A stretch of 64,000 nt of DNA. Source: Paraspadella gotoi. Its lineage: Eukaryota > Animalia > Chaetognatha. The notes beneath the pieces were generated by a model. The model saw nothing but the letters and a program-made list of their open reading frames with translations. It ran no database searches and had not been told where the DNA came from. A program made the translations under genes and the position numbers. The stretch spans positions 3,619,793-3,683,792 of the forward strand of contig CM119267.1 in NCBI GenBank assembly GCA_051294375.1. The letters are read 5' to 3'. Positions 9,154-38,200 of the stretch are shown here, in pieces (within the stretch, counting starts at the first letter, position 1; every line of letters starts with the position of its first letter).

Positions 9154-10433
9154 ATGGGTCCCCCTAAACCCTTGATCGAGACCATGTTAATAACCTTTTT
9201 CGACTTTGTGGAGATTACGGCCTCTTTACTCGCCCCTTTCTTTCAATGGCTTAGGCCTCGAATTTGTGACGCTCCGTCTTGCCCCGTCGCCCCTGCGTCC
9301 TTCTGGCCTTTTTCGTCCAAGACGAACGAGTACGACGACGAAGCCGCTGACAATTGCGTCGTGCGAATGACGCTCGTGCTCTTCGCCATTTTCGTCGTCG
9401 TCGCCGTCCTCTGCTTTAGACTCCAGCAGTTCCTTTCTTCTCTCGCTAAGAGACTTGGTTGGAACACGGAGACGCGCGGCACCAACACCTCGACTCGTGG
9501 CACGAACACGCCGCCGCCGATCGAAACAACCGCGGTGGAGACGGCGACGGATCCTGAAGCTGAGACGGTGAACGGGGCGACGGTCGAACGGACCGATTCC
9601 GGTATCTCCAACGACGCTGACGAAGATGCTCTCAAGTACGATCCGTCGATCCCCGCTCAAATATTTTTTTTTTTATGCTTAAATTCATACGTGTTCCTTT
9701 TCCACTCCATTTTTTTTGTTTAGTTGCGCCGCGAGTACTCGCGGAGCAACTCTATAAGTCACTTTTCGGTCAGTCGGTCGGTATGTCTGTCTGTCGGTCT
9801 GTCTCACTTACATTAAAAACGCTTATATTATAATTTGCCTATAGTTTGTGGCTCATTTGTTGAAAATCAAATCTCAGCGACTACTGCCGCCGCTTTTTGT
9901 TTTTTAAAAAAATAAGTAAATAAGTAAAAAAAAAATAATGCAGCGCAACACCTTGGAATAACTGTTCCTTGTTTTCAGTCGAATGAACGTCCTCCTTCGA
10001 TCCCTGACCGGCGCCGCTCGCGACGTCGGCTTTGCCGTCGGCGATAAAGAATCTCGAATCGAGGAATTGAGTTTCGAGAATCGCGCTCTGCGTCAGTGTC
10101 TCGACGACGAAGAGCAGGTGAAGACTTTAGATTTATTCGCTTATTAAGAATTTTGTTGACTTATTTCGTAATAAGTCAGAAATGCAATCACTTGTAAAAT
10201 GTAGAATCGTCATTCCTGGGATATATTTATAATACTAATAAATATATAATTATTAATATTAATATTTTTCCTTTCAGCTTATGAATTGCGTGGTCTGCAA
10301 ATCCGAGCGTCGAAACGTCATCCTTTTTCCTTGCCGCCATTTGTGCCTTTGTGAAACCTGCGCCTGTCACAACTTCGTCGAGTGTCCTTACTGCAGGACT
10401 CGCTGCACCAAGCAGGAAAAGATCTTTCTCTGA
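9154..10433 (+). CDS. Transmembrane protein with C-terminal C3HC4-type RING finger (RNF26-like E3 ligase architecture), 258 aa
   Basis: Exons 9154-9635, 9979-10117, 10278-10433. TM LVLFAIFVVVAVLCF, a short coiled coil, then CVVCKSERRNVILFPCRHLCLCETC...CPYCR...KIFL. The RING exon is missing from the ORF track. Confidence 0.82.
9716..9810 (+). mobile_element. HINE/DINE-1-like (Helentron-associated) element fragment
   Basis: T-run, hairpin ttagttgcgccgcgagtactcgcggagcaact, ctataagtcacttttcggtc, then a (GTCY)n tract. Same head as 43143 and the reverse complement of ~38815-38855. Confidence 0.55.
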
Positions 10434-11093
10434 TTAATTCAATGAAGCATAGACGAATATTATATTTTTCAATCCAAACATGCCGCGCAGCGAATCATGT
10501 CGACCTTTAATGTGATTCTTTGGTAGCTCATGACGAAAATTCTCAAGTTGATGTTTTTCTTAATCATCTCAGGGAAGAATCTCTAGAAAATCAGGTAGAT
10601 ATTACCTGATTGCCATCAAGTCCAGAATTATAGATGATTTGGTTTTCGTTTTTCGACTCCAACCACCTCACAGTGGCCTTTTTCAGAAAAACAAATTGAT
10701 TTGTATGATTATTTTCATGCAGTATTCTTATTTAGTTAATACCGATGTCTTCCTTATTTCTTGACATGAAATGAAACGCATTCTTCCGTGTAGTACATAT
10801 ATGGATTACACGGTGTGTGACTCATTTTATAAAACGCATTTTTATTTTTCGGATTAACACATCGCAGTGTTATTCTTTATTGATATGAATGTTTGATTCA
10901 ATTTATTACAATTTTTGGAATACTCTTATTTAAATTGTGTCGACTTATTATTTTACAAGAATTTTTAGTTTAAGACTTTCAATCAGTTAGTTTCTTTAAT
11001 GCCTATGTTTACTACTTTAGTTCACCTCAACTCCCTCTTTAGTCTTTACCCCCGTCCTACTTTATAAGCCAAAAAAAGAGGAAAACTTTCATT

Positions 11094-14000
11094 ATGAAAA
11101 CCGAATACGAGGAGCTGGTCTCCTCACAACTTCGGTTGCCGACGGGGTTTTCGCGCTCTGAGGACGAGGGCAATCGCGTGACGATCTTGACGACTTGTGA
11201 TTGGTTGACTTTCGTCCAATCGCAAGGTCGTCTACCTAACGAGGACGTCCTTTCGGGGCGAATATCAGAGGACGATCGTGTCAGAAATTTGGCCCCGTCC
11301 ACCCAACTGGTTCCGGCGCCTTGGATTCGAGTTCGCGTCATCGTGGAACCCAAAAGCGACGCCGTCGTTCAGGTCGTAGTCGATAGCGACGCCGAGGAAT
11401 CGGGCCCCGGCGAGACTCCCTTTTTAAATCTTGCTTCCTTCGTGGCTGACTCGTTCTACGAAAACGTTTGGCGGTCGTTCAACGGCGGCGACCGACCGCC
11501 TCGTCGGCGCATCGTCGAAAAAAGAAGGGACGATGCCGTCGTCGCGGCGTTGGAGGCGCTCTACGAGCCCGGCGAAGCTCGAGACGGCGTGGGCGTGGGA
11601 CTCTCCGAGGATCCCACGGCTTCCTCGATCTCGACGACGGGTGGTCACCCAAACATTGACCCATGCTACTGCGTGCTCGACTGCCGCAAAGCAGTATTGA
11701 TTCTACAGCCTTATTCCCCGTTCAGCCTTTTTCACGCGGCCACGTACACCCAGTCGCTGTTGACGGACAACTACGCAAAGTCGCTCTTCGTCTCGTACCA
11801 AATTTTGAGAGCCATGTCGTTTTGTCACTCACGCGGACTTTACTTGGGCGATCTCAGACTCGACGACGTTAGCGTCAACGAGAAACTTTGGGTGAAAATA
11901 TTCCCTAAATCTTTGGAGGACACTTTCGTCGGGGGAGATAATCGTCGGGGGAATGAAGGGAAGTCGCTATGCGAATCTGGAGTCGATTGGAAAAAACCGC
12001 TCAATGTTTTGACCCAGCAGTGGGTGGAAGGACTCATTTCCAACTTTGACTATCTTATGCTATTGAACCGACTGGCGGGTAAAGTGAAAGGCGATCCCAA
12101 CAATCATCCCATTCTTCCTTGGGTCGTTGATTTTTTGAGCCCTCAGAACTATAGGGATTTGACCAAATCTAAATACAGACTTAACAAAGGAGATCACCAG
12201 CTGGATTTGATGTACGAGTCACAACAACTACAAATACCTGTTGCCCACGATGTCGGAAATTGTTTTCATCAAGATTTTGCTCGCACGCCTCACCATATTT
12301 CCGATATGCTCTCTGACATCACCTACTACGTTTACTGCGCCAGACGCATCGACAAAAGCACATTATGCGCTCACGTGCGAAGCAATTGGGTTCCAAACGA
12401 GTATCCCTCTTCCATGCAGAGGATGTATCTTTGGACCCCCGACGAATGCATCCCCGAATTTTATACGGAGCCCTCGATCTTTACATCGATTCACGAAGAT
12501 CTTCCAAACTTGGACATTCCGCACTGGGCCGAAAGTCCCGAAGACTTTATTGTCAAGCACCGTCAGATTTTAGATGGTCCCTACGTATCGAGACATTTGC
12601 ATCATTGGATCAATCTTACCTTTGGTTATATGCTCTCTGGTCAGCCCGCTGTTTCGAATAAGAATGTTTGCTTGAGATTGGTTGACGGCCATGAAGAAAT
12701 TAGTGCTCACGGAGTTGTACAATTATTTACTCATCCTCACCCTCAAAAACTAGTCAAAGAGATCAATCAGCCGAGTATAATCGAAACTAATAACCTTAGA
12801 GTAAACATAGAATTAAATGCTGATGATTTATCAAACTGTCACATAGCGATCTCCACTCCATTTACTGACACCCACACAGAAGATGCTATTGAAGCATCTG
12901 TTGAATCTACTGAAAAAAAATCTTCAAAGTCTTCTAAGGATGAAAGTAAACGACTTTCGATTGATTCTAAAATTTTATTACCTGAAGGCTTTAATCCATT
13001 AGCACAGCTCGAGGGAGTTGAGGCTCTTTATAATTTTGTGTCTAAAAGCATGCATCGTACTCCACAAAGCGATGTTTGTGCAATTGATAACAGTGACTCG
13101 ATATCACAATCGAGGGTTCAGCGTGATATGGAATGTTTTGCTGTTCTGATGGCGGAAATGATACTCGCTAAACGACTTCGGTTTGAGCTAGGTGACAAAT
13201 TGCTATCTTGGGAAGAACGACGCCAAATCGTAAGGACTGTGTTTGGAGAAAGATTCACTGAAATTCCACGACCATTCAGGCGGATCCTAAAAATTTTGTT
13301 GCTCGAAGGTTCCATCGAGTCCAACTTTTACGGAGCGCCCTTGACTCCTTATGTTCTCTTACATCCTCTTGTTGACATTATTGCATTTCCAGCTTTTTTT
13401 TCGGAGCTTTATTCGTTTATAAAGAAATTACATTTTTTCAACGATAGCCATTGTAGTTATTCAGAAAGCACGTCCAATTTGGCAAATACTGAAAGTCGCA
13501 ACAAAGTTGACTTGTGCGCGAAAGTGTTGCCATCTTTATTACCAAATCTCACTGGCGAATGTCAAGAGATACTTTTGCCTTACCTAAAGGACCTATTTAT
13601 TAATCCACAGACCGCGGTGGCCTCTGCATGGCACTTGTTTGGTATCATTGCCACCAATTTCGGACCCGAGAAGATTATCAAGGATTTTTTGCCATCTTTA
13701 GTTAAACTTTTTCAAGATGAAGGCTCCACCTCAAAACACATGAAACTTTACCATAGAACTTTCATGTTACAGATGATGGTTGGTCTTGGCCTGCAAACCT
13801 TTTTATTGTCATTTTCGACGCTTTTAGTTGAGGCTACCGCTGGTTTCAAAAATTTCGACGATGATTTTATTGAAACGGTCGAAGTCGAAATTAAGGAAAT
13901 TCCTGATGAGATTCTTCTTCGTCAAGAAACTTATTCTGAAAATGAGGAAGAAAATTCTATCGTGAGATCTGCCAGTTCACAAACAAAATCTGATAGTTCT

Positions 14001-16646
14001 TCATCTACTGATGTTTTTGATCGCCTCGACTTGGGTCCAGTTTTGGAAACGGATTCTGACTGTGAAAGAAATATTTCGGACGATGACAATGAGAGCGTCA
14101 CGTTAACCGAGCCTGTAAAAAGGTTTGAAGTGGATATTGTTGACATCGACAGTTGCAATTTGTTAGGTACATCAGTTCACAGTATTTCTCGTGTCATCGA
14201 TGCGACTAGCAGGAGGGCTCGTGAAAAAGTATCCGATGTAAGCAATGGCAGCATATGTTCAAATGACAATGTAGAAAGTGCAGGAAATTTGGAAGATTCG
14301 TTGAAATCCAGTGGCACTGGTAGAAGTTCTGGATTTTCAACGGAGCAATGCAACATTTCTACAGTTTCTTCCGAGACAATAAAATGGCTGACTTATCGAC
14401 TGGGCCCTGTTCTAACTACAAAATATATCAGTGGAAATTTGTTAAAAATGCTCTCTTTGTGTTACCTCGGTTCAGATCAACTGCAACAACCTTTTGGTGA
14501 TAGAGAAATCGCTAAACTTTGGTACACTGTTAATGGAGATTTTAATGCGAAAAATGTTCTCGATTGTCTTTCGAGCATCGCTGTACAATATGGAGAGCAG
14601 ATCATTCTTCTTCACTATTTTCCTTATCTAGCGGAGCTTATTAGCTCCTGTTCTCGGAAGAATAGATTAAACACAAGGACAGAAGCCGGACTAGTTTCGG
14701 CGATGGTTTTGTTAAGACATTGCCTTCCACTTCTAGCCGATCAAACTCTAATGGATTATTTGCCGGACGTCGTTTTCAGAGACATTTTAAATCCGACGAT
14801 CCAATTGATTTCCAGCCCGAGCCTAGGGTTTCCATCCGGAGCCTTATCGCGATCCGTTATCTGCTTTAAACTCATCGATGTCATGATGATGGTATCTCTT
14901 CGTATTGGTTTCGAAATGACGAGGAAGATGATGACGACTCTATTGACCAAATTCTTCGCTTGTTTCGACAACGTGCATTCTTCCCCAGGAACGGAAGATT
15001 CTAAAGAGATAATCGCCAATTATATCGATGTCGATGCTCACACCGGTCACTTTGAGAAAGAAAAACCTTCGCAATCGCAATTTCAGTCTTTCGCGGATGC
15101 GAAAGAGGTCAAACACGTTCGCTCTTCGAGTCTTTATTCTTTATCCGCGTTGAACATGGAATCTAAAGAGAGCGAAGTATCGGAGAAGGAGGCGAGCCCC
15201 TCGGAGGACGAAGAGCAAAACAAGGCAGAGTTGAAGAAAGTCTTTACATCCGGGTTAGCGCATTCGGTTTACGTTCCGTTCTGTAAATTAGCCGGAAACA
15301 TTCACCTCGATCAGACACTTACCAACAAAGATTTGATTCACTCACTCGTCGCCAAAGTCGAAAGTTCCTTCGCTAACGAGGCGGAAAATTTATCCGCCGA
15401 TCCTCGAATGACCAAGGCGGGTTCGGGGACAGGTTCTTGCAATCCCTCTTCCGTCAGTGGCAACTTTGGGAAAGACGTTGCCGTCTCCGGAAATAGAATA
15501 AACCTCTCAAGTTTGGGTGAAACAGCCACGCCTCCAAGTCCCGCTCGGCCAACGCTCTCACCCGATTTGGAATCGCGAGCCTTGGTCGATTTGACATCCG
15601 TCGATGTTGGCCAATTGAAGAGTTTCGACATGCAGAACGGGAATCGGCATTTGAAAGGCAACTGGCTTCAGTATTGGGAACACGAAATCGGACTGAGCGC
15701 TCAAGACGCCAACAGTTTCGAATTCAAAGGAATTAGATTGCAGTCCTTCGTGGGTCACGCCGGTTCCGTTCGCTCTCTCTGGGTCCTCGACAACGAAAAC
15801 TCTTTCCTCAGCGCGTCCAAGGACAAAACCGTCAAGCTCTGGTCGATTAAAAATTTCGGGGACGGATTGGGAAGAACCTATTCTCGGTGGACTTATCCCC
15901 ATCACAAAAAATCCGTGTTTTCCGTCATGTTTCTCAACTCTTTGCGATTAGTGGCCTCATGCGATTCCACCGTTCACCTCTGGGATCCCTTCATTGCTTC
16001 CGTCGTTCATCAATACGACGCCAACAAACTTCCGCCGGTCAGCGTGCTCGCCCCCGTACCGGCGCCTTCTTCCACTCTCGTCGCCGCCACGACCGACAGC
16101 TCGTTGAAGTTGCTCGATTGTCGAAATCCCGCCGCCGTCAACCTGCCCGACCTCCGCGTTTCCTTGGGGTCCGTCGGTCCGATCCGCTGCGTGGCCGTTT
16201 CCCCCGACGGATCGTGGGTCGCATGCGGGTTTTCATCCGGGATGATCGGCGTCGTTGATCTCCGCACCGGCCTCATTTTGGGCATGTGGAAGGCGCACGA
16301 GGGAGAAGTGTACAAGGTGGAAGCCTTCGATCGCTCCACCATCGTCACTTCCTCCTTCGATCAATCCATTCAAGTTTGGGACATCCACGCCAAAAAGAGA
16401 ATGACTCATCTTAAGGGTCACATGGAACCCGCCCATTGTCTCGCTTTTTTCAAATCCATGGTCCTTTCGGCGACGACGTCCAACCGGATCGGCGTGCATT
16501 CCAACATCACCGCCAACTCCTCCTTCGCAGTCTCCAAACTTCACACGGATGTCTTCAAGGGGGTTTTGACCACCATGTCGATTTTGCCCTTAAATCGGCT
16601 GCTGCTTTTGGGCGCCGACAATGGCAACATCAAATTGTGCTGTTAG
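11094..16646 (+). CDS. WDR81: WD repeat- and BEACH domain-containing protein 81, 1850 aa, single exon
   Basis: Kinase-like start (YQILRAMSFCHSRGLYLGDLRLDDV), BEACH (ISNFDYLMLLNRLAG, RDLTKSKYRLNKGD, WTPDECIPEFY, HHWINLTFGY), C-terminal WD40 (SASKDKTVKLWS). Confidence 0.95.
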   Translation: MKTEYEELVSSQLRLPTGFSRSEDEGNRVTILTTCDWLTFVQSQGRLPNEDVLSGRISEDDRVRNLAPSTQLVPAPWIRVRVIVEPKSDAVVQVVVDSDAEESGPGETPFLNLASFVADSFYENVWRSFNGGDRPPRRRIVEKRRDDAVVAALEALYEPGEARDGVGVGLSEDPTASSISTTGGHPNIDPCYCVLDCRKAVLILQPYSPFSLFHAATYTQSLLTDNYAKSLFVSYQILRAMSFCHSRGLYLGDLRLDDVSVNEKLWVKIFPKSLEDTFVGGDNRRGNEGKSLCESGVDWKKPLNVLTQQWVEGLISNFDYLMLLNRLAGKVKGDPNNHPILPWVVDFLSPQNYRDLTKSKYRLNKGDHQLDLMYESQQLQIPVAHDVGNCFHQDFARTPHHISDMLSDITYYVYCARRIDKSTLCAHVRSNWVPNEYPSSMQRMYLWTPDECIPEFYTEPSIFTSIHEDLPNLDIPHWAESPEDFIVKHRQILDGPYVSRHLHHWINLTFGYMLSGQPAVSNKNVCLRLVDGHEEISAHGVVQLFTHPHPQKLVKEINQPSIIETNNLRVNIELNADDLSNCHIAISTPFTDTHTEDAIEASVESTEKKSSKSSKDESKRLSIDSKILLPEGFNPLAQLEGVEALYNFVSKSMHRTPQSDVCAIDNSDSISQSRVQRDMECFAVLMAEMILAKRLRFELGDKLLSWEERRQIVRTVFGERFTEIPRPFRRILKILLLEGSIESNFYGAPLTPYVLLHPLVDIIAFPAFFSELYSFIKKLHFFNDSHCSYSESTSNLANTESRNKVDLCAKVLPSLLPNLTGECQEILLPYLKDLFINPQTAVASAWHLFGIIATNFGPEKIIKDFLPSLVKLFQDEGSTSKHMKLYHRTFMLQMMVGLGLQTFLLSFSTLLVEATAGFKNFDDDFIETVEVEIKEIPDEILLRQETYSENEEENSIVRSASSQTKSDSSSSTDVFDRLDLGPVLETDSDCERNISDDDNESVTLTEPVKRFEVDIVDIDSCNLLGTSVHSISRVIDATSRRAREKVSDVSNGSICSNDNVESAGNLEDSLKSSGTGRSSGFSTEQCNISTVSSETIKWLTYRLGPVLTTKYISGNLLKMLSLCYLGSDQLQQPFGDREIAKLWYTVNGDFNAKNVLDCLSSIAVQYGEQIILLHYFPYLAELISSCSRKNRLNTRTEAGLVSAMVLLRHCLPLLADQTLMDYLPDVVFRDILNPTIQLISSPSLGFPSGALSRSVICFKLIDVMMMVSLRIGFEMTRKMMTTLLTKFFACFDNVHSSPGTEDSKEIIANYIDVDAHTGHFEKEKPSQSQFQSFADAKEVKHVRSSSLYSLSALNMESKESEVSEKEASPSEDEEQNKAELKKVFTSGLAHSVYVPFCKLAGNIHLDQTLTNKDLIHSLVAKVESSFANEAENLSADPRMTKAGSGTGSCNPSSVSGNFGKDVAVSGNRINLSSLGETATPPSPARPTLSPDLESRALVDLTSVDVGQLKSFDMQNGNRHLKGNWLQYWEHEIGLSAQDANSFEFKGIRLQSFVGHAGSVRSLWVLDNENSFLSASKDKTVKLWSIKNFGDGLGRTYSRWTYPHHKKSVFSVMFLNSLRLVASCDSTVHLWDPFIASVVHQYDANKLPPVSVLAPVPAPSSTLVAATTDSSLKLLDCRNPAAVNLPDLRVSLGSVGPIRCVAVSPDGSWVACGFSSGMIGVVDLRTGLILGMWKAHEGEVYKVEAFDRSTIVTSSFDQSIQVWDIHAKKRMTHLKGHMEPAHCLAFFKSMVLSATTSNRIGVHSNITANSSFAVSKLHTDVFKGVLTTMSILPLNRLLLLGADNGNIKLCC

Positions 16647-16794: not shown

Positions 16795-19700
16795 ATGGAT
16801 TCTTCCGTCGACACTTATCTTATTCCTGATTCGAACAATACTCAAATACATAATCTAGTCGAAGATGTCAACAAACTTTCGATGGGCGAAGAAGGGCCGT
16901 CCGTCCAAGGGACTCCGAACGACGGACGCACGGACGAGCGACCGCTTTCCGCTCGGACGCGATCGCGGCGAAAGAAGCAGTTTGCCAAGAGCAGCTGCGG
17001 CGGCGGCAATGAAACCCCTTTCCGCCCCGCAGAGGTCGCGACTCCAAAAAGACCCAATTCCGCCAGGACGAGATCCCACCGACAATTATTACAGAGTGAG
17101 TTAAACCAAAAAATTTATTTAATTTCGGAAAAATAAGTACTTTCCGAACATTACGTACATACAATTCAGATTCTTTTCTTTGTGTAATCCTTTCGTTTCG
17201 TTGCTTTAGGAATTTGCAGGAATAAGTTTGATTTGTTTGTGACAACGATTTGTTTTATTTCATTTTAGAAACGGACATGTTTCGGCTTTGAATTCAAGCC
17301 TTCATCAGCGTTGACAGATTTGTAAATTATATTTCAAATTTGTGCATAAAGAAGACTTATTTATTAATAGCTAATTGTTAAAGTTAATTCAGTTTATAAA
17401 TTTATTATTTGTTGTACATTGTACAATTATTTTCAACTTCACCCTGTGACTCTCTCTCTCTCTCTCTCTCCTCTTCTCTCTTTTCAATATCATCATTTCA
17501 ATTTCCCTTCACAAACTAATTCTATTCTGTTCATAACTTAAATTTGTCCTCAACATTGACCACTGTTCTTTCGCAAATCTGTGTTGGGAAACTTTGCCCT
17601 TTGTCTCTCTCTTTTTAATTCTATTTTGTTCACAACTTAAATCTGTCCTCAACATTGACCACTGTTCTTTCTCAAATCTGTGTTGGAATACTTTGCCCTT
17701 TATCTCTCTCTCTCTCTCTGTCTTCTTTATGCACAAGTTTGAAATATAATTTACAAATCTGTCAACGCTAATGAAGGCTTGTATTCAAAGCCGAAACATA
17801 TCCGTATCTAAACTGAAATAAAACATAGTTGTCACAAACAAATCAAACTTATTCCTGCGGATTCTTTTCTAAAATGATTCCCGAATCACATAACTAATTT
17901 TTTTTTATTCTGACATCAGACGGTGATTTGACCGACGGTCGCCCCAAGTCTGCCGGCGTCGCCTCGCGAAACCGACGACGAAAAGACGTTAAGGATCAAC
18001 TAAACTCCTTCGATGGCGCCTCTCCTCGATGGCCGGACACTAATCCCGAAACTGGTAACCAAAAACAATGCAAAAAAACCTTCAATGTGGCCGCCGGGGG
18101 TCGCCAAAACTTTAGACAGAGATGGGGCAAACCTTTCAAGGGGCGTCGACGAAGCTCAAGCAAAACCGAGGATGAAACTCACTCAAAACCCAAAACGCCT
18201 TCCACCGCCGACGACGATTTAAACGCGACGCCACAACAACAACAACAATCGGCTCGATCGAAAAGCGGGAGACGCCGCCGCCGACGCTCGACCAAATCCG
18301 ATTCCGAGGCCTACGTCGTTGGATCCTTGGAGGAAAACTTGCAGCCTTTGATGGAGTCTTTCGTCAAAGGATTGCCCACCGGTCTCGTCTTCGATTCGCA
18401 AATGAATCAACATCGGTCACATCATCGCGCCTTTCACGTGGAGCGACCCGAGAGAATAATCGCCATCTACGACAAAATGTGCGAATCGGGGCTCGCGAGT
18501 CGCTGCGAATCAATCGCCGCCCGTCCCGTTCACGATGAGGAGATTCTTTCCTTTCACGACGAGACTCTTCTGGAAAAATTGAAGTCGGCCGAAAATCGTT
18601 GCGAAGGCGATGAAGAGTCTCGCTCCGTTTTTGACGCCCTCACAGCCTCACACGAGGACGTTTACTTTAACGCGTCGACGGCGGAAGCGGCGCGCCTTTC
18701 CGCCGGGGCCTGCGTCGATGTCGTCGAGCGGGTCGTCGACGGTAGTCTCAAGAACGGGTTCGCCGTGGTACGCCCGCCGGGGCACCACGCCATGCGTTCC
18801 GATTTTTGCGGATTTTGCTACTTGAATAACGCCGTTCTCGCCGCCAAGCACGCCGTGGACAATCTGGGTTGCGGCAAGGTGCTCATCGTGGACTGGGACG
18901 TGCACCACGGACAAGGTACTCAGTACGCCTTTTACGACGATCCGCGTGTTCTCTACTTTTCCGTCCATCGCTACGCATTCGGCAGCTTTTGGCCTCACCT
19001 TCGGGAGTCCGATTACGACGCCATCGGCGAGGGCGAAGGCTTGGGCTTTAACGTCAACGTGCCTCTCAATAAAAAAGGATGCACCGACGCCGATTACTTG
19101 CACATCTTCTTTCAAATTCTTCTTCCCATCGCCTACGAGTTTTGTCCTGAACTCGTCATTGTCTCCGCCGGATTCGACGCTGCCCTGGGCGACCCCTTGG
19201 GCGAGATGCGCGTTACCCCTTCTGGTTTTGCTCAAATGATTCGACTCGTCAAACTTTTCGCCGAAGGTAAAGTCGTCGTCCTCTTGGAAGGCGGCTACAA
19301 CTTGACGGCGCTCTCGGAATCCGCCGCCGCCACTCTGAGCGAACTGCTGGACGATTCGCCTCCACGACCGCAGATCGGAGGCATGAGGCCAGATCCCCTC
19401 GTATGCGACGCCGTTCACAATCTCAAGTCTGTCCTGCGTCCGTATTGGCAATGCTTTTCCAAAGTCAACCTCTTTCACAGTCATCGGCGTCCCTCTTCGG
19501 AGAGCGCTTCTCCCCCTCCACCGCCGCTATCGCGATCTCAAAAACACGACCTCGTCCAGTTTAAATCTTACGAGAATCCTCCGCGCTGCTATTCGCCAGA
19601 TTATTACGATCCTCAGCCCGAAGAGGAAGCGGCGTCTATCGAAGCCGCGATCGCCGCCTCCGTCGCCCTTCATCCGCGACGCCGCGTCGCCGGGACCGCT

Positions 19701-21221
19701 CTTGTCTACGACTCTGCTATGAAGCGGCATCGTAACGCCGTCGATCCGGGCCATCCAGAAAAGCCGGAGAGGATAGGCGTTATCTACTCTGAGCTAGCCC
19801 GATGGAAACTGTTGGCGCGATGCCATCTCGTGGACTCGCGGTTAGCGACCGAGGCTGAGCTCAAACTTTGTCACGAGGAGAAGCACGTGTCGGCCATGCG
19901 TTCGACGAAGACGTCCGGCGGGCGAGAGTTGTTTAAGATGCAGACGGACTTCAACTCCGTTTATTTAAATCAGTCTTCCTTCGATTGCGCCCGTCTCAGC
20001 TGCGGCTGCCTACTCAACGTTGTCGACGACGTCATGGCAGGGCGGCGACGCAATGGCGCTGCGATTGTGCGTCCGCCTGGACATCACGCCGAGCGCCACG
20101 TAGCCTGCGGATTCTGCCTTTTCAACAATGTGGCGGTCGCGGCGCGATATGCGCAGGCGCGGTTCGCCGGCGTCTGTCGCCGCGTGCTAATTGTTGACTG
20201 GGATGTTCATCACGGAAACGGGACGCAGCACATCTTCCAAGACGACCCGAGCGTCCTCTACATCTCCATTCATCGACACGACGACGGCGGGTTTTTTCCC
20301 TGTGGTGACGACGGTGACTTCGACCGAGTCGGCTCTCGACTCGGCGCCGGGTTCAACGTCAACGTCCCTTGGAACACCAACGGGCGACGAAGTGTCGGTG
20401 ACGCGACTTATCTCTCCGCCTTTCTCGACGTCGTGATGCCGGTGGCGACGCAGTTCGATCCCGACCTCGTTCTTGTCTCTGCAGGCTTCGACGCCGCTAT
20501 GGGTGACCCCCTGGGCAAGTTCCAGGTGACCCCTATGGCCTACGCCCACATGACTCACATGCTTTGCGGTTTGGCCGAGGGTCGCGTCGTGCTGGCGCTT
20601 GAAGGGGGTTACAACTTGAAGAGCATCTCTGAATGCATGACGGCCTGCGTGCTGACTCTGCTGGGTTGCCCTCCACCGCGTCTTGCACCGCACAAGCGAG
20701 CGATGCACGGGCGTGACAGGCAATCTATCGAAAACGTCGTCAGCGCCCTCGAACCCTTTTGGCCGATTTTGAACTCGAGGATCTTGGCAGAGGAAAGCGA
20801 AGCTGGCATCTCCTCTCCTGTGGATCTTAATCAAAACAAGAAGAAGGAAGTGGACGAAGAGTTGAACGATGTTTTTGAATCTTTAACCCTGCAAAGCACT
20901 CCAATACCTTTCGTCACGAAGCGGGAAAGCCTCGATCCCGATTTGAAAATCAAAATGGCGGAATTCGATTTGAAGTTGGCCGAAGTTCCCGCCGTCGTAT
21001 CGCCCGAAGTTCAACAAGAAGCCAAGCACCTCATCCGGGTTCTCCTTCTCGGACAGGAAGGCGCCAAGCAGTACGAAGAATCTATCGTCGAAGAAGACGT
21101 CGCCGTAGTGGAAGAGAAAGCGCCGCTGCCGCCGCTCGTCTTTAATTTGGAGACTCCCAAAGTTGACGTGGGATCACCCGGGTTAAAGTCGGACGAAATA
21201 ACTGTGGTGGAATGTGATTAA
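16795..21221 (+). CDS. HDAC6: Class IIb histone deacetylase with two intact catalytic domains (HDAC6-like), 1200 aa, no ZnF-UBP
   Basis: Exons 16795-17095 and 17920-21221 (a|gtgagt...atcag|ac, phase 1). Both domains have RPPGHHA, DWDVHHG, SAGFDAA.GDPLG and LEGGY. Confidence 0.9.
17270..17312 (-). ncRNA. Minimal type I hammerhead ribozyme motif (PLE-type)
   Basis: Minus strand reads AACG-CUGAUGA-A-GGCUUGAAUUCAAAGCC-GAAAC-AU-GUC-CGUU: stem I AACG/CGUU, stem II GGCUU/AAGCC, palindromic ACAUGU stem III, GUC cleavage triplet. Confidence 0.75.
17764..17806 (+). ncRNA. Degenerate hammerhead copy (core CUAAUGA = G5A; GAAACAUAUC)
   Basis: AACG-CTAATGA-AGGCTTGTATTCAAAGCC-GAAAC-ATATC-CGTA. Same motif as 17270-17312 with core and stem III substitutions. 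Confidence 0.6.
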
Positions 21222-21348
21222 TTCCGATTGTTTCCAGATTTAATTTGGACGATTATTTTTTATTTTACCATAGAACTATTTTGATTTTTTATGATTACTA
21301 GTTTATTAACGTCTAGGTTAATACTTTATTAGGTTTAAAATAAAACAA

Positions 21349-24300
21349 ATGTCGGAAAATCGACCCTGCGAAACATGCGGCGAAACGGATTATTACGAAC
21401 AGGGCGGATTTTATTATTGCCAGGAGTGCAACACCCAGGTGAGAATATTAAACGAGACACGACAGTTCGGGAAAATCCAAGTAATTCAATTCGCTATATA
21501 ATTTTGAAACAATTTAAATATTGAGGAATAATTCATTTAAGAAAAAAATTTATACTAGTCTCAAGGTATGCGCCGCATCGAAAACGCCAATGAACATTTT
21601 GATATGAGCGGCAATCGTACGTGCATCTACACCAAAGTCGACAAACACATCAGAGAATTGGAGAAGGAAGAGCTCGACTTCGGAATTCCATGGACGACTC
21701 ACGACGCTTTCGGAATTCTTCTAAAGGTACGTTGTTTTTTTGTTTGTTTTTTTTTATGGAAAATCTCGGTCATATGTTAATAATGTTTTTGAGGCTTTTA
21801 GTTAAGTTAGTCGTCCGTTCAAATTTTCTGGCAGGATTGGTTTAGATTTTTACGATAGCCTTTTTCGCCTCGTGTCAAAAACTATTCTTAGGTAATCTCC
21901 AAAGATTGGCATGTTAATGTTTGGCTAGTGTTTTTTATAGGAGGGTGTTCTTTTTTTATAATCATAGAAAACAAATAATATTGTGAAGAAAGCATGACTC
22001 GCCTACGTGTCGTCCAACGAGATTTGGACGCAACTCGCCATGCTAATCTCAACTACAATCGCGAAGCCGAGGCCATGCAAAAAGAGCACGAAGAATATCT
22101 CAAGTATCCCCTCGACGTCGATGCTTGCATAAAAAAGCTGACGGCTCATTCCAAAGGTGGGCGCGGGCAGATTCGTCCGGCAGTTTCGTTCGTTCGTCTT
22201 TGAAAAGCTTACGGGATAATCCGCCTTCCCTCCCAGAGATAAAACCAGTAATGGTGGATCTCCAAGAGGTGGAGCTCCGCTCCATCATCGCGCGTACGGA
22301 ACATATCCTCGGACAACAGCCCATGTTGCTGGACCTGGATTCTCCCGTCAAGATCGTGGCCGACACCCACGGCCAGTTCGTGGATCTTATGCGAATCTTC
22401 GAGAGTTGTGGGTGGCCGCCCAAGGCCAATTATTTGTTTTTGGGGGACATGGTCGACAGGTGGGCGATAATTCATAGAAGGATGCAGCTCGTGGAGTCTA
22501 TTGGCGATTCGTCGTTCCAGAGGTCCTCAGCAAATCGAGACGGTGGCTCTTCTTTTTTGCTACAAAATCAAACATCCGGGAAATATATTTTTACTGCGGG
22601 GAAACCACGAGTCCGGTTCTCTCCATCGTCGTTACGGTTTCCAAGGAGAATGTAAAAATCGTTACAGGTTTTAAAATCCTTGGCGTGCGTGACCAATTTG
22701 ACAAATAACAAATCTACGATTCTACTCCATGGTTTACAACGTCCTTCTTAGTCTCAAATTATGGCGGGCTTTCGTGGAGTGTTTCAATTGGTTGCCAGTC
22801 GCCGCCGTCGTCGATGAAAAGATCTTCTGTTGCCACGGAGGGCTTTCTCCGGATCTCCTCAAGGGCGAGGGGCTGGACAAGATTCGCCAGTTGCCGCGAC
22901 CCACCGAGGTTCCGGACGATGGCATCATTTGTGACCTCTTATGGGCGGATCCCGATCCGGACGTCAAGATGTTTCAGGTCAGAAGAAATGAGAAATGGAA
23001 GAAATGTCGATTGATGACTCGACGATGCTCTCCTCGGCACGGAAATTAGGAGAGCGATCGTGGCGTCTCTTATCTCTTTGGCGCGGCGGTGGTGGAAAAG
23101 TTTTTGGACAAGTACGACATGGATTTGATCTGTCGCGGTCATCAGGTCGCCGACTGAGCTGGCTTTTTCAGATTCGCGCGCGCCTCCCTATTTTTTTGGG
23201 GGTTCAATCGCCCGGCTATTTTCAGGTCGAAACGGACGGTTACTCTTTTTTCGCGGATCGTCAACTCGTTACCCTTTTTTCCGCGCCTAATTATTGCGGA
23301 GAGTTCGACAACGTTGGCGGCATCATGACCGTCGAGGAGGATCTCACCTGTTCCTTTCAGGTCTCGAATAATTGCGCTTTCTTATTATGTAGAGATGGAA
23401 CGGTTAAAAGGGTTCGTCCGTTCCCCACAGGTGGTCCAGCCTGCGGACCAGAAAAAGAAGCCGGCCGGAAAAGACAAGGGGGGAAAGAAGGAAAAGAACA
23501 AGGTGGCAATTGGTTCAAGCGCTTACATCGTCTCTCGGTCGATGTCGTATATTTTATTTCATTCAGAACGCGACTCGGAATTTCAATTACGCCAAAGCTT
23601 GCAACGACACCAACTGCTCCATGTGCTTCGGCGCTCGAACTGCTTCCAAAGGCCCGCGTTGCCCCATTTCCTGATTCGCTGATTATAAAATCTTTTGTTT
23701 TTTTTTTTTTTTTTTTCAAAATAAAAAAATACTTGCGATCAAAGTTTAGTTTTTTATTTTTAAGCACAAGTCACAATTTTAGACGAGCAAAAAATGGCCA
23801 GCTTATCGTCAACTAATAAATACTAATTTAATAAATCGACTACTTAGTATTACTTAGTTAAAAATTCATATTGGTTGTGTCGGGAAGAAACTTTCGTGGA
23901 TTCTTTCATCGGCTTTTATTCATCGGATTCGTTTATGATCGAACATTTATCCATCTATGGATCAATTTGATAAACTTTGTTAATGAATTTTTATTTATAT
24001 GCATTTCTTAGGCTCAAGCGGAAGCACTCGTAAAATTGGGCGCTCCTGCTGCACTCCCGATCTTGGTCGAAAAATTGTGGACGCGATATCAAAGCCGAAA
24101 GTCAGGAACTCCCTTGCCTCGAGATCGTGACACCGCCAAAGATTTGTCAAAAGGTAACTTGAAATAGGAAAATAGGAAAAGAAATAGCTACGCGGTTAAG
24201 CGAGAAAGCAGCCTTTTTCCGTTTACAGGGCTGCCTCCCTTGGCCTCCTGGCGAGCATTTCGTAAACGGAAGGGGAGATGGCCCAAGAAGATTGAACCCT

Positions 24301-26669
24301 CCTTTTTGACGCCTGAGGAAAGGAAGGATTGGAAGACGCAGCAAGGGATCGAGGAGGAAGAAGAGGAAGAGGAGACGCCATCGCCAGATGTGGAGCGAGA
24401 CACCAATGAATTTTATGGAATTGGTGCGTTAATCAATGTCAAAAATTTATTTTCTTCTAAATTCAGTAGTACAGAAATGGTGAAAAAAAAGTGAATAATT
24501 AGGCTTTTCTCTATTTAAAATATTAACTTTAAAACATTTACATTTTTAAAATTTAAAATCAGCAACCCGTACTTCATACCACCAAATCAAACGCATGAAA
24601 ATGGGATACAGTCTATGCTTTATTTACATTTCTCTTCTTCATTTGGAATCGCACGTGTCTCTGGGTAAATAAATAAGTTCTTTCCTGAGGATTTTTCTCA
24701 AATTGATATTTTCCGTTGTTATTTTTGAGCCGACGTGCTTCGCTGGGGCCGCGAATGCGCTCTCCCCTACCTCAATCCGCTGCATTTCTTTCCTGACAAT
24801 CTCAAGTTCTCCGGTTACGACCTCAAAACCTTCGCCAACGTCAAGTGTCTTCCTACCCCGACTCAAGTCAGACAAGACGCCGGACGATTGACCCTCTTTT
24901 TGCAGGTTCCGTCTCATTCAATTGCTTTCTCCTTTTCTCCTTCTAAAACCTCTTTCCGCTGATTTTCTTGGCAGTTGAACCCTTTTCCCGCGGTGGACAT
25001 TCGCCGTTTGGTGGCGCGATACTTGATCGACTTGAATCTCCCCGACGACCTCATGAAGATCTCATCCGGCATCATCTCAGCCCTGGACGTGCGAAGCCCC
25101 GTCCATGCCCCTCGACCCGGAACCGCGCAGGTTGGGGCGGAAATTCCTTCGCTCTTTCCCCCTTTTTATTTTTTCGTCTCCTATAACGGAATTTTCCTTT
25201 ATCGATCTCTTCAGTCTATTCCCAACTACGAAGCGATGGGCGTGGCCGTATTGCTCATGACGCTCAAGCTCGTGTTTCGTTTGGATGGCGTGACGGAGTT
25301 TGTTTTGTCTCACCTCGTCGCGGAGTTGGAGAAGATCGAAGAATTTCGCAAGAGTCGGAACATCAAGAGAGATTCCTCCGATTTGTGGTCAGCGGTGCTG
25401 GGTTTTAAATTTAAAACAAAAAAATTGAATAACAATTAAGTTAACAATATTTAACATTTTGTTAGGTATATTCCTCCTTCGACATCCGCGCCACCGGAAA
25501 TGTTTTCCTTCTCCGAGTGGTTCCAATTTGCCTGTGAGTACCACCCTTGTAATTTTTTTAGTCTTTTTTGGGGGTTTTTTAGTCTACGTTGTACGTCTTT
25601 TTTTTTCTAACAGCGGAGTGTTTGGTTCGCCTCAAATCGCGAAAGTTTCCTACACCCGAAGATCTTGAATGTGGCGAAGAGGTCGGATCCGACGTGGCTC
25701 ATCTTGCCCTTCATTATTCTCACAATTTGGTGAACAAGAAAGGGTCCGTTCGTCGAGCCGATCTCCCTTCTCGTCTTCGAATCGACGCCCTCCAATCCGC
25801 CATCGCCGACCTTCTTCTCGACGGCGCCGACGTCTCCGATTCCACCGCCCGCAGCAGCGTCACTTCGTTTCCGGTTCTCGGTGCCCTCGAGTCGCCGGAA
25901 AACGACGCCGCCGCCGAAGCCGAATGGCGAGCGAGTGCGGGGGCGGCGTCGAATTCAGAAGCGTCGGGGAAAAAGCTCTTCCGACGTGATTTGGGATTTT
26001 TAATTCGGCCGCCATTGCAGCAAAAGTTGCTCAAAGACGACGTCGTCTTGCGGACGCTCAACCTGCCGCATTATGAGATCGACGAGGAGACTGGAAAAGC
26101 GGTAGGTGGGCAGATTTGGCGGGAAACGACTGGAGTTGATTGATCATCCTTTCTATTTCGATTTAGCGCTGTGACTGGTCGGCCTGTGGAATTCGCGAAC
26201 CCGGCAAGAAACTCTTTTCCAACAGAAAAACTGTCAAAAATCTTTTATCTCACCAAACCAAGTATTGTTTTCTCATCGAATGGGGAGCGGAAAACCTGGG
26301 AAAAAGGTCTAGCACATTAATAATAATAATAATAATAATATTGTAGTAAATTTCTGATTTTATTAGTAAATGAGAAAAAAAATTTTTATTTGTTTTTCAT
26401 ACAACGAATTTGTATTTTTATTATTGGTAATAAAAAATGACAAAAAGTAATATTTTTTTTTCGCTAGCCGTACTCGAGCGGAGGAAATAAAGGAATTAAC
26501 GTTCAACCAATCGCAAACAGTGAAAGTGTTGATCGATCTCTGCGCCGAAATGTTGGAGGAAGATCCAAAGACGTTGACTTACGACGTCGGAAAACTGGAA
26601 CGGAGATACCCGATGGACGCGGTCGCCTCGAGGGCGACGTCTCGAGAAGCTGTCCGATCTCCCTATTGA
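21349..26669 (+). CDS. TAF1B: RNA polymerase I initiation factor TAF1B/RRN7 (TFIIB-related), 699 aa, 12 exons
   Basis: Exons 21349-21438, 21559-21726, 24012-24153, 24229-24423, 24563-24664, 24730-24905, 24975-25130, 25215-25387, 25466-25533, 25614-26101, 26167-26306, 26468-26669 (total 2100 nt). Zn ribbon CETC...GFYYCQEC; [12 protein letters not shown]|[15 protein letters not shown]; [26 protein letters not shown]; LKLVFRLDG. Confidence 0.85.
21994..23674 (+). CDS. Divergent PP1-like Ser/Thr phosphatase catalytic subunit nested in TAF1B intron 2, 389 aa, 8 exons
   Basis: Exons 21994-22156, 22237-22459, 22521-22667, 22752-22977, 23050-23145, 23226-23360, 23431-23502, 23567-23674. [49 protein letters not shown]. 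The last exon is less certain. Confidence 0.88.
23878..23950. repeat. ~75-bp interspersed repeat, inverted copy at ~38126-38202
   Basis: tgtcgggaagaaactttcgtggattc.ttcatcggcttttattcatc is the reverse complement of gatgaataaaagccgatgaacgaatccacgaaagtttcttcccgaca. Confidence 0.7.
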
Positions 26670-26732
26670 TTTTTGTTCGTTGTTGATCTGCCTTTTCTAG
26701 AATTTTTAAGAAAATGACTATTTTGGAAAACA

Positions 26733-29489: not shown

Positions 29490-29538
29490 AAGAAATTTAC
29501 CGCCAAGTGTTTGTGATTTATCTTTGTCTAAAACAATT

Positions 29539-29930
29539 GATCTTTTCTCGAAATATACGTTAAAAAATGTATTGAATAACTCCGTCCAAACTCCAAATTG
29601 TGCGAAAAATATTTTACTCGAATCCTGTTTTATTTTTTTCTACAGCGAATTTTTTTTTACAAATATTTTTGAACTTTATTAACTGACTCTTTGACCTTGG
29701 ACCCTCGGCGATGAATCCCTCAAAAGTGGAATCGATCTTTTCTCGAAATATACATTAAAAAATGTATTGAATAACTCCGTCCAAACTCCAAATTATTTGT
29801 GCGAAAAATATTTTACTCGAATCCTGTTTTATTTTTTCTACAGCGAATTTTTTTTTACAAATATTTTTGAACTTTATTAACTGACTCTTTGACATTGGAC
29901 CCTCGGCGATGAATCCCTCAAAAGTGGAAT
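29539..29930 (+). repeat. Recent ~195-bp tandem duplication of the GINS2 upstream region plus first 7 codons
   Basis: 29539-29732 and 29734-29930 are near-identical; both end in ATGAATCCCTCAAAAGTGGAAT. Confidence 0.92.
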
Positions 29931-30493
29931 TCTTGGCCGAGAAAGAATTCATCCAAATCGTTCCTAACTTTTCCCTGGATCGGATCTATTTGATTTCCGG
30001 CGACTTGGGTCCCTTTGTCCCCTCGATGCCAACCTCGGTCCCTCTCTGGTTGGCCGTCGACCTGAAGAACCGGCGCAAGTGTCGCCTCGTTCCGCCCACG
30101 TGGATGACGGTTGAGCGTCTCGAGACCAAGAAACAGGAGGAGACGGCGTCGCAATTTTTTACCGAGATGCCGTCGCCGTTCTACGCGGAGGTGACGCAGA
30201 TGATGCTCGACGCGGCGCCGGAAGACGTCCCTCACGCAGACGCCATCCGCGTTCTCGTCAAGGACATTTGGGATACGAGGATGGCAAAGCTCCGATCCTC
30301 CGTTGATAACTTTATCAAGAACGAAGGAACTCACGCCAAACTGGACCATATGACACTGCTCGAGCTCAACACAGTTCGGCCTTTGCTCACGGGCGCCTTG
30401 AACGATATGCATTTCCTTCGAACGGGCAGCAAAGGATGGAGCAACGAAGAGGCTAATCTCAATTCGAGGACTTTGAATTCTTCATCAATTTAA
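29909..30493 (+). CDS. GINS2: GINS complex subunit 2 (Psf2), 194 aa, intronless
   Basis: EFLAEKE.I.IVPNFS, GDLGPF.P, VPLWLA..LK.R.KC, KDIWDTRMAKLR, LELN.VRP. Confidence 0.96.
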   Translation: MNPSKVEFLAEKEFIQIVPNFSLDRIYLISGDLGPFVPSMPTSVPLWLAVDLKNRRKCRLVPPTWMTVERLETKKQEETASQFFTEMPSPFYAEVTQMMLDAAPEDVPHADAIRVLVKDIWDTRMAKLRSSVDNFIKNEGTHAKLDHMTLLELNTVRPLLTGALNDMHFLRTGSKGWSNEEANLNSRTLNSSSI

Positions 30494-31230: not shown

Positions 31231-31887
31231 ATGACCATATATAGCACGTATATCATAAACAAAGCCGGCGGGCTAATCTACCAAAACGACTACACCAACC
31301 AGCGTTACGAAGTAGAAAAGACCTTCAGTTTTCCCCTTCAACTAACGTTGAAGATCAGCGACGAACGCGTGACCGTTGGGTTCGGTCAGCGTGACGGCGT
31401 CCGCGTCGGTCACGTGCTCATGTCCATCAACGGCCAGGACGTCAACGGGCGCCGCACGGCCGACGGGCGAGACGTCCTCGAGTTTCTCGCAGACGCGGCC
31501 AACTTCCCCGTCGGCCTCAAGTTCGGCCGAGCGCCGCTGAGGACCAACGAGAAGCTCATGATGGCCTCAATGTTCCACTCGCTCTACACAATCGCGGTGC
31601 AGCTGTCGCCGGAGCCGCACTCGAGTGGCATTCAAGCGCTTGAGACTGACACTTTTAAGCTGCACTGCTACCAGACGCTGACGGGAATAAAATTCTTGGT
31701 TTTGACCGATCCCCGTCAGGGAGGCATCGACAATTTGCTCAAGAGGATCTACGAGTGCTACTCGGACTTTGCGCTCAAGAATCCCTTCTACTCGCTCGAC
31801 ATGCCCATCAGATGTGAACTCTTCGACCAAAACTTGCAGACTTCCATCGAGCAGCTTGAGCGCTCCGGAATCAGCACCATGAGTTAG
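31231..31887 (+). CDS. TRAPPC4: TRAPP complex subunit 4 (synbindin/Trs23), 218 aa, intronless
   Basis: [13 protein letters not shown]-like insert ([13 protein letters not shown]), [45 protein letters not shown]. Confidence 0.96.
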
Positions 31888-35264: not shown

Positions 35265-38200
35265 ATGGAAGATCCTCCAATGAATAACGCCTCTTTGGTT
35301 CCGGACGACAATTCCTCTGTTCTTTCTTCAAAGTCATCCTCAAATCATTCTTTACAGCAAGTTGTTCGTGTCGGACTTAATTCCTCCTTCCATCGCGCTA
35401 TGAACCCCTCGCTTAGTACTTCTGCCCATTCGTCGCTAAATAATGAACAAATCCACTCTCCCAACAATGAACCTTGCCGCGAATCATCACATGTTTCTGC
35501 CCCAGTCATTGCTTCCGGCCGATCCCGAAATTCTTCAAAGACTTCTTTGAATCATTCTTCACAACAAGTTCCGTCTGGGAATCATGAACCATGCCCGGCT
35601 CCTTTACATGAACAGAGCCATTCTTCTAATCATGAACGGGAACGTCCTTTAAGTCATGAAACTAACCCATTTTCATTTCATCTCATTAAACGGAGCCCTC
35701 CTACTGTTCATGAACTGATCCAAATTTTTGATCGGGAACCAGGAATCAGGAAAAGGAATTCTTTTAATCAGGAACCAGACCAGTCGCGATCTCGACGTTC
35801 TTCAATTTCATCGTATCCTCATGTTATGAACTCTGAGCTTAATCATTCTGCCCTTTCTTCTGCGAATCATGAATTATCCCACTCTAGTAACAGAGGAGCA
35901 GGCCATATTCCATCATTTCTTTCCGCGCCAGTTATTGCTTCTGGCCAATCTCAACTTTCCTCAAAAACATCTTTCAAACAGTCTTCGCGACAACGGAGAC
36001 ATTCTTATAATCATGCTTCAGTCGCACGTTCGAATAGTGTACAACACGATCATAATCAAGTCCCAACCCGATATTCTCTCCCTCCACTTTCGGATTTTAA
36101 CGCTGCTTTTCAACACGATTCCAGTCAAGTTTCCCCCACAAATTATGATCCAAATCGAGCTGCATTATACTCGAACGCTGATTTTACCCACCATGAAATT
36201 TCCCATCCATTTTCCCCGCCAAGGTCTTACCATCTTTCGTTCAATGATTCAAATCAACCTTCACCACCTAATCATGCTACAAAACTCGCGAAAAATCTTG
36301 TTCCTAAATCTGATTTCCCCATTTCCGTTTCTCGGAGTAATGATTTACCCAATGATATTGCCACATCATCATCGTCTTCAACATACACTCCAGAACAAAA
36401 TTTGGATTGTGAGCCGCGTTCCGATCTAAATACCAAACCATTATTATTCAATTCAATACCTCCGTCTGAACTTAATTCCGAATCAGCCTTTGATCCATTT
36501 TCCGGGTCGAACCGTAATATTACTAGTAATAGTACCACTAGTGAATCATCATCCCCCGTTCCCGCTTTCGATTCTTTTCAACGCGTTCGTAATTCCGCGT
36601 CACACCCCAATCCAAATTCTTCCGGACCCGTTCCTTCTTCGGAGTCACACCCATTAGCTGTGCCTGAATCAGACTCGGGATCTTGTGCCGACGCCGCGTT
36701 CCGCGAATGCGATCCCCCTTCGTACGACTTCGTACCCCCTCGTAATCCAATTTCAAACCGCCACCCTCCTCGTCTACCGCAGTACGTTTCTCCGCTCGCT
36801 CCTGTCGACGAAATTTATTCCAATATTTCTCCCCTCGCTCCTGTCAACGTTATTAATTCCAATATTTCTCCCCTCGCTCCTGTCAACGTCGTTAATTCCA
36901 GTATTTCACGCCCAGCTCCTGTCAATAATGCCAATATTTCATCTCCTGCTTCCAATGATGCCCAAAGGAACGTACTCTGCCCCCTCTGCCCTGAGCCATA
37001 TCGATGCTTTTGTCATTTATGGGACTGCCTGGAACGTTGTCTAGGAGTAAAGTGCCGTCTTATTTTAGTCCTTACTTTATTTTTTTGTTTGATCTTATTT
37101 TGGAAGTATTTTTTTATCTACCTGGCCAAAGTAGTCCCGGGTTTCGAAATCGTTTATAAGGACGCCGTGGACGTGGGCAAGTCACGACCGGCTCCAGAGC
37201 TGGACAACGAGCGGATATTCCGATTGCGACAGGCGCTCATGATTCCCACCATCTCCTATTTGGTGGATGACGGGAGTCCCAATAAATTAAGAGAGTTCGC
37301 TCACTTTTTGAAAACGAATTTTCCCCTGATTCACGATTCTCCGTTGATCTCGCTAAAAGTAGTCGAAAAATATACCCTCCTATATGAATTTCGCGGCAGC
37401 GACACGAACTTGCAGGCATATCTCCTTTGCGCGCATCAGGTTGGTGAAAGGCTTTCGAAGGAATTAAAAACTTATTAGGGGTAATTCTCGAAATGGTTGG
37501 AAAAATTACCCTCGCATCGGTCATCGTACACGTAGCATGTAAAACCGTCGAATTACCTTTAGTTTCTGGTTTGATTGACTTCCTAATTTTTGACATAAGT
37601 ATCTTAATCCTGATTTTGAACATTAGAAGCTTATGGGCAAAATTTTACATTCCAGTCGGTTATATTCGTTTTTCGCTTCTTATGAGCGATAACGTAACGA
37701 AATTTAATATATATCTGTGATGATATTAAAGTATTTTAAAATTATATTCATTTAATATAAATATATATAAGAATTTTAAAATTATATTCGTGACATAAAG
37801 GTGCCCCGATAGACCTTTCCCCAGTATGTATCCCTATCAGAACATACAATTCTACATGGTAGACTTATCCCTATTGGTAAAAATAATCATATATAACTTT
37901 GGTCACCCCTCAAAAATTTATCCATTCCCAGCCTCTTAGATATTATGATTTTTCAATTTTCATTAATGACTTTCTAACAGAAATGATTTGTGATATCTAT
38001 TAGAAAACTAGGACAGATTGTAATCTAACTCCCTCTATTTCCAGAAGACCACTCTGACTTCCCCTTCCCAAATTGAGTTATTAGATATAATGATAAGTAA
38101 AACATTTTTAAGAAAGAAAGCAATGAATAAATGTCCGGTTGTAAATGAATCCACTGATGAATAAAAGCCGATGAACGAATCCACGAAAGTTTCTTCCCGA

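Follow-up and report, generated by a model that had tools for sequence, protein, structure and literature searches.

Several animal genomes have been surveyed for genes that sit inside another gene's introns. In Drosophila melanogaster, the sections of PMC3814207 and PMC5174743 that deal with orientation give 71.3% of nested genes as antisense to their host and about 29% as lying on the same strand. According to the same sections, 72.5% of the same-strand guests are single-exon genes, the roughly 27% with introns have a median of one, and Table 1 holds 50 hosts with intron-bearing same-strand guests. Same-strand nested genes are also the most tissue-specific class in the fly, with 58% peaking in testis, as excerpts of PMC3814207 report. 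For humans, portions of two further sources describe 75 parallel against 152 antiparallel pairs (PMC2330155) and, in a 2024 catalogue, only a slight bias toward opposite strands (PMC11694760). A first-pass annotation of the locus described here had stated that nested genes are mostly antisense; this holds for the fly and human majority, but the surprise it attached to a same-strand case was overstated, given the same-strand share of fly pairs. Passages on other animals describe 2,357 nested genes, many of them parallel, in the trans-splicing ctenophore Hormiphora (PMC8527503), 2,432 in a glass sponge (PMC10282587), and an antisense gene in the intron of an operon gene in Caenorhabditis elegans (PMC1657053); passages of PMC3409270 offered nothing on the subject.

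Chaetognaths have operons and spliced leaders (described in parts of PMC2481426 and PMC12460157), and the relevant passages of PMC12460157 give about half of the genes of a chaetognath as trans-spliced and 18% as belonging to operons, defined by distances of less than 250 bp. In that paper, the main text contains the word "nested" 0 times, and the three PDFs contain "nested", "phosphatase" and "TAF1B" 0 times. A literature search, mostly of open-access texts, returned no description of a same-strand nested gene in a trans-spliced operon. As a passage of PMC10282587 notes, the default settings of AUGUSTUS disallow nested predictions. Automatic annotation of a locus such as the present one is likely to break TAF1B in two or overlook the inner gene.

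Within the window, the whole 64,000-nt stretch of Paraspadella gotoi DNA that was analysed, an intact eight-exon PP1-like gene lies on the sense strand inside intron 2 of TAF1B. A single public run contained this stretch (X1); it consists of contigs only, which are spliced and which we take to be RNA. Two of these contigs, records 1 and 2, are cited below. The host gene and its flanking gaps are as follows.

21222..21348, plus strand: gap of 127 nt from the HDAC6-like stop to the TAF1B ATG; X1 record 1 runs through it unspliced
21349..21438, plus strand: TAF1B exon 1 (ATG 21349; Rrn7 zinc ribbon, Pfam PF11781, E 3.8e-10); X1 joint 21436>21557
21559..21726, plus strand: TAF1B exon 2; open frame, X1 record 1
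21727..24011, plus strand: TAF1B intron 2, the host intron; its flanks are directly adjacent in X1 record 1
24012..26669, plus strand: whole span of TAF1B exons 3-12; open frame, 8 listed joints and record arithmetic for the last intron
24012-24153, 24229-24423, 24563-24664, 24730-24905, plus strand: TAF1B exons 3-6
24975-25130, 25215-25387, 25466-25533, plus strand: TAF1B exons 7-9
25614-26101, 26167-26306, 26468-26669, plus strand: TAF1B exons 10-12
26670..26732, plus strand: gap of 63 nt from the TAF1B stop to the WDR27-like ATG, crossed by X1 record 1

We built the exon model of TAF1B by coordinates, and its reading frame is open across 12 exons, giving a protein of 699 aa. All 11 TAF1B introns are GT-AG, as are all 18 introns of the host and nested genes together. 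Intron 2 is in phase 0 and measures 2,285 nt, compared with 65-161 nt for the other ten host introns. A Pfam scan of 13 exon pieces placed Zn_ribbon_RRN7 in exon 1 above the cut-off and Rrn7_cyclin_C weakly in exon 7 (E 0.003) and exon 8 (E 0.02), both single-exon matches below the cut-off, and the N-terminal cyclin was not detected by Pfam on the short exons 2-6. This is the order of the TAF1B/Rrn7 family, an N-terminal zinc ribbon and then cyclin folds, and since Rrn7 domains flank the insert, we read the host as one TAF1B gene on both sides of it. TAF1B is a Pol I initiation factor, presumably essential.

The nested gene has the following parts.

21994..22156, plus strand: PP1-like exon 1 (ATG 21994); open frame, N-terminal similarity to relatives, contig touches the last 14-16 nt only
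22237..22459, plus strand: exon 2; X1 record 2, STPPase_N below cut-off
22521..22667, plus strand: exon 3; X1 record 2, Metallophos
22752..22977, plus strand: exon 4; X1 record 2, best PDB match PP1-alpha
23050..23145, plus strand: exon 5; X1 record 2
23226..23360, plus strand: exon 6; X1 record 2
23431..23502, plus strand: exon 7, lysine-rich; X1 joints on either side
23567..23674, plus strand: coding part of exon 8, with Cx4Cx2C, a CaaX-type end and TGA 23672-23674
23720..23725, plus strand: candidate poly(A) signal AATAAA, from sequence only, followed about 25 nt downstream by a T-rich tract

The coding sequence (21994-23674) is an open frame of 389 aa interrupted by seven GT-AG introns of 61-84 nt, and further AATAAA motifs stand at 23815 and 23830. 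It lies wholly within one host intron, of which the nested gene occupies about 75%, and is separated from the host exons by 267 nt on the 5' side and 337 nt on the 3' side. When TAF1B exon 2 was joined to each of the 15 AG sites that precede the nested ATG, every join ran into a stop. These results bear out the first-pass annotation, which had placed an eight-exon PP1-like gene with its own ATG, seven introns, stop and AATAAA on the same strand in TAF1B intron 2, had given that intron as 2285 nt against ~65-160 nt elsewhere, and had dismissed a fusion on the grounds that the acceptors at 21940 and 21967 lead to a stop. The nested introns after residues 285 and 330 coincide with what we take to be vertebrate PP1 intron positions.

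Spliced products of both genes are present as separate contigs of one run, and there is no fusion ORF. Both ORFs and every GT..AG joint read on the plus strand. Record 1, a spliced contig of 18,314 nt, has 9 of the 11 TAF1B introns as listed joints; the remaining two, beside simple repeats, were read from record coordinates. At the host intron, positions 21557-21724 correspond to record 5397-5564 and positions 24010-24154 to record 5252-5396; the two pieces are directly adjacent (168 and 145 letters, 0 differences). Given this adjacency and the AG present on both sides, the junction, which is next to a T-run, is 21726>24012. Record 2 is a contig of 1,053 nt with nested exons 2-8 spliced, 0 differences in its listed pieces, and GT..AG joints for 6 of the 7 nested introns. 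For intron 1 there is a 14-letter loose end that agrees with the final letters of exon 1 except at one position. The first-pass annotation had proposed that the host transcript skips eight sense-strand exons and had named the 21726>24012 junction and a separate PP1-like mRNA as what cDNA should contain; record 1 provides the junction, and record 2 is a separate spliced contig of the nested gene. We note that contigs from RNA support splicing but cannot prove physical nesting in DNA. X1 is without cover at 21762-22234 and 23732-23865, holes that count neither for nor against any reading; nested exon 1 is thus almost uncovered, as is the 5' flank, and record 2 ends in the T-run at 23693-23716, before AATAAA. 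Contig depths were 314 and 169, values that do not rank expression. A further X1 contig aligned at 22535-23356 with 85% likeness comes from a second PP1 paralogue, also expressed, whose motif is the ordinary GDYVDRG, and two additional joints in the insert belong to it rather than to the nested gene.

The nested protein resembles PP1 more than it does PP2A, PP2B or PP5, with exon 4 matching PP1-alpha at E 1.6e-30, PP2A at 2.5e-18 and PP5 at 1.4e-13 among PDB entries. It shares the catalytic and RVxF-pocket residues of PP1 catalytic subunits. All 10 catalytic positions (presumably D64, H66, D92, R96, N124, H125, H173, R221, H248 and Y272) are identical to those of four ordinary PP1s, including all six metal ligand or acid positions and both phosphate arginines, and so are all 10 positions of the RVxF pocket, whose labels are likewise our assumption. 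Identity across the core is 81-84% to five subfamily relatives and 59-60% to four ordinary PP1s, from which the nested protein also differs by an added N-terminal extension. Where ordinary PP1 has a TPP motif, its tail is lysine-rich with Cx4Cx2C and a CaaX-type end. We therefore predict from these motifs an active, RVxF-binding, prenylated PP1 variant, and the predicted prenylation box would bring PP1 to membranes without an adaptor. Our literature search found no description of a CaaX-ended PP1, which is weak evidence of novelty.

By its sequence relationships, the nested phosphatase is a member of a long-branch PP1 subfamily whose members mostly have CaaX-type ends. In a tree of 32 rows, 31 of them hand-picked from 131 PP1 matches and with midpoint rooting for drawing only, the window protein and eight relatives form one side of a branch with 100/100 support and a length of 1.43. 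This nine-row clade with its long stem, together with the kept residues, indicates that the nested gene is old and under constraint. Changes relative to PP1 found throughout the subfamily are G63A, Y93M, S207A and A247G, and exon 4 matches six clusters at 80-88% identity. Cx4Cx2C near the C-terminus is present in 14 of 14 full-tailed relatives (P0002-P0005, P0007, P0122 and P0124-P0131, from five clusters and so not independent; three truncated relatives are left out), and 12 of the 14 share the C-x-x-x end with the window protein. Two subfamily members end earlier, perhaps through alternative splicing. A profile search that scored 7,995 candidates added no more subfamily members, and a metagenome scan based on an alignment gave 26 loci, all 32-61% identical and ordinary PP1-like, with no genomic subfamily member among them; eight of the 26 were checked for animal intron positions, and none was usable.

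The neighbourhood of TAF1B resembles an operon. Genes on the plus strand encode, by domain, Arf, ChaC, ankyrin, BEACH-WD40, two-domain HDAC, WD40, PSF2, sybindin/TRAPPC4 and isochorismatase proteins; we take three of these to be WDR81-like, HDAC6-like and WDR27-like from their domain content. In the WDR81-HDAC6-TAF1B-WDR27 run, the stop-to-start gaps are 76, 127 and 63 nt, so that the host run has the same-strand spacing of less than 250 bp that marks trans-spliced operons. Record 1 spans the HDAC6-like, TAF1B and WDR27-like genes, although one contig does not show one transcript, and its 10,313 additional letters upstream of 19000 would suffice to extend past WDR81. Several further features of the cluster were observed. 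Long intron-free coding stretches at 11043-16646, 17898-21221, 29909-30493 and 31231-31887, namely a WDR81-like frame of 1,867 codons, most of the HDAC6-like gene, PSF2 and TRAPPC4, stand beside the intron-rich TAF1B. TRAPPC4 relatives fall into five clusters at 80-84%, with hemichordate, vertebrate and mollusc proteins at ~60-71%, a pattern of slow evolution that, taken with the operon-like spacing, probably points to a chaetognath. Positions 9136-10440 on the plus strand hold a probable gene with membrane segments and a C-terminal RING, presumably RNF26-like. A 200-nt tandem duplication at 29535-29930 (96%), which includes the first PSF2 codons, could be an overlap left by the assembly or a genuine duplication.

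Two elements flank the nested gene inside the host intron.

21727..21993, plus strand: AT-rich 5' flank, 267 nt, candidate promoter or outron; splice sites scored by a crude matrix
23878..23954, plus strand: dispersed repeat, 77 nt, 87.5% like 38123-38202 (minus strand)

The 5' flank has acceptor-like AGs at 21834, 21891, 21940 and 21967 and a single weak donor at 21892. By the matrix, which is crude and was trained on 17 introns of the same locus, 7 of its 14 AGs are acceptor-like compared with 2.9 expected (p=0.008, uncorrected, one of six regions tested). The host donor and acceptor score 6.9 and 7.5, and some flank AGs score 8.2 and 7.5. There are five upstream ATGs, the last at 21917, so a nested mRNA must have either a late start or a splice at 21940 or 21967. 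Recursive-splicing points take the form of an acceptor directly abutting a donor. AG 21891 abuts the donor-like GT 21892 (21889-21897) in this form, or, equally, the GT could open a 76-nt 5'-UTR intron. Compared with the host (7 nested versus 10-11 host introns), nested introns are richer in GC (p=0.005) and have acceptors poorer in T (p=0.02), with no difference in acceptor pyrimidine content (p=0.41). The repeat, composed of degenerate 14-nt units over its 77-80 nt, has a third copy with different upstream sequence in another X1 contig and is possibly a transposon remnant. A snoRNA reading of it was dropped because the copies at 23878 and 38123 fold differently, and Rfam gave two chance-level matches in the 64-kb window, none in the intron or the repeat. 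Looping out of the insert by pairing of its flanks was also rejected (-81.4 versus -77.3 +/- 5.7 kcal/mol, with 14 of 60 rough shuffles as low).

The reading that we favour, with evenly balanced confidence, is that the nested mRNA comes from its own small promoter within the 267-nt AT-rich start of the intron. A long operon-like transcript would run through the insert; in it, host donor 21727 would pair with acceptor 24011, and the poly(A) signal of the nested gene would mostly go unused. Each short nested intron would be defined by its own close donor-acceptor pair and would not capture the host sites. By analogy with flies, the phosphatase mRNA would be initiated inside the intron in a narrower cell type, probably the male germ line, and would lose its upstream ATGs through a late start, a 5'-UTR intron at 21892-21967 or the addition of a spliced leader at either 21940 or 21967. 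It would end near 23745. The gene itself may have arrived through a DNA-level move of an older gene, which is likelier than retroposition because its introns are kept and it has conserved relatives. We favour an internal promoter because same-strand nested genes are highly tissue-specific in flies (58% testis-peaking in sections of PMC3814207) and because trans-spliced chaetognath genes mostly lie outside operons, by passages of PMC12460157; with about half of genes trans-spliced and 18% operonic in that source, a leader on the nested mRNA would not need an operon promoter. That nested introns are GC-richer, with T-poorer acceptors, would be in keeping with their competing weakly against the host acceptor. 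Counting against an own promoter, the acceptor-rich flank suits the trans-splice site of an operon gene equally well, and the host donor would have to bypass flank acceptors that in some cases score as high as its own partner. The promoter and start site of the nested gene are candidates, and its tissue specificity is proposed by analogy.

A tentative alternative, which we consider less probable, is that the phosphatase is a promoterless operon member that happens to sit in an intron, and that the pre-mRNA is either cis-spliced to give TAF1B or trans-spliced to give the phosphatase. Each transcript would then yield one product, through the 21727>24011 splice or through a leader at 21940 or 21967 and a cut at 23745, after which the free acceptor at 24011 could take a leader and downstream genes would stay expressed. 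The close spacing of the WDR81-HDAC6-TAF1B-WDR27-like run argues for this, as does the passage of the long spliced contig over two of its three intergenic gaps, although that contig does not establish a single transcript and trans-splicing at this locus is itself something that we infer. The flanks of the nested gene are T-rich like the operon-like intergenic gaps (0.43-0.44 versus 0.46-0.47), acceptor-like sites stand 26 and 53 nt upstream of the nested ATG with no ATG in between, and most germline markers of a chaetognath are trans-spliced and operonic genes in the sections of PMC12460157 that treat them. However, no leader-like loose end is listed in the X1 contigs, which leave this region uncovered, and a leader on TAF1B exon 3 would place four out-of-frame ATGs ahead of the first in-frame ATG, so that each phosphatase mRNA would cost one TAF1B mRNA. 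On this less probable reading, a cell-type-controlled choice between cis- and trans-splicing of one pre-mRNA would yield either TAF1B or a lineage-specific prenylated PP1, for example linking shutdown of rRNA synthesis to sperm differentiation; our literature searches found no description of such a switch.

It is unlikely that the two genes share first exons, with TAF1B exons 1-2 cis-spliced to 21940 or 21967 as a 5' leader for the phosphatase and polyadenylation at 23720. The strong acceptor-like sites 213-240 nt from the host donor, far nearer than 24011, would permit this, and a splice to 21967 would place the stop of the TAF1B frame at 21995-21997, where it overlaps the nested ATG, an arrangement that could allow re-initiation and is also likely chance. 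Yet an upstream ORF of 92-95 codons would hamper translation, record 1 is unbroken past the end of exon 2, and no X1 contig joins exon 2 to the insert. An abundant splice fork would normally break a contig.

Less likely still is a misassembly, with a short intron 2 and the phosphatase gene at some other place. N gaps occur in the assembly, as does the near-exact tandem copy of 200 nt at 29.5-29.9 kb, the insert is bordered by similar T-runs (21732-21753 and 23693-23716), the dispersed repeat stands at 23878, and contigs from RNA would look identical. Against this, there is no N within 28 kb, the GC3 of the insert (0.62) is in line with that of neighbouring genes (0.50-0.76), and the repeats, at 18-77 nt, are below ordinary read length. 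In a further reading, which we regard as very improbable, the host intron would be trans-spliced and polyadenylated once its lariat is released, and the nested mRNA would be recovered in this way. A single transcript could then supply both mRNAs from sites that exist in the sequence, but no observation here supports trans-splicing of an excised intron, and literature searches turned up no precedent.

An own intronic promoter thus remains our preferred reading, and the locus offers a compact, RNA-supported 2.3-kb case in which 14 sense-strand splice sites, along with a poly(A) signal and several free acceptors, are passed over by the spliceosome. Fly, human and ctenophore already provide a minority class of intron-bearing same-strand nested genes, and this one is unusually intron-rich. 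As in the parallel nested genes described in parts of the fly and human literature, the whole gene sits in one early, overlong host intron and has a function unrelated to that of its host. It differs from fly same-strand guests, mostly single-exon and otherwise with a median of one intron in the passages cited above, in having seven. Fly same-strand hosts are less often essential in those passages, whereas the host here is a compact gene for a Pol I factor, and the insert fills about three-quarters of its intron. Parallel nesting combined with probably widespread spliced leaders is shared with Hormiphora, whose nested genes are often flanked by transposons, compared with a short dispersed repeat here; the passages of PMC8527503 report no operon-internal case or mechanism. 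With chaetognath operons, as described in parts of PMC2481426 and PMC12460157, the locus shares same-strand housekeeping genes less than 250 bp apart and acceptor-like sites before the ATG. The operon genes in those accounts follow one another, with no mention of one placed in an intron, where the phosphatase lies.
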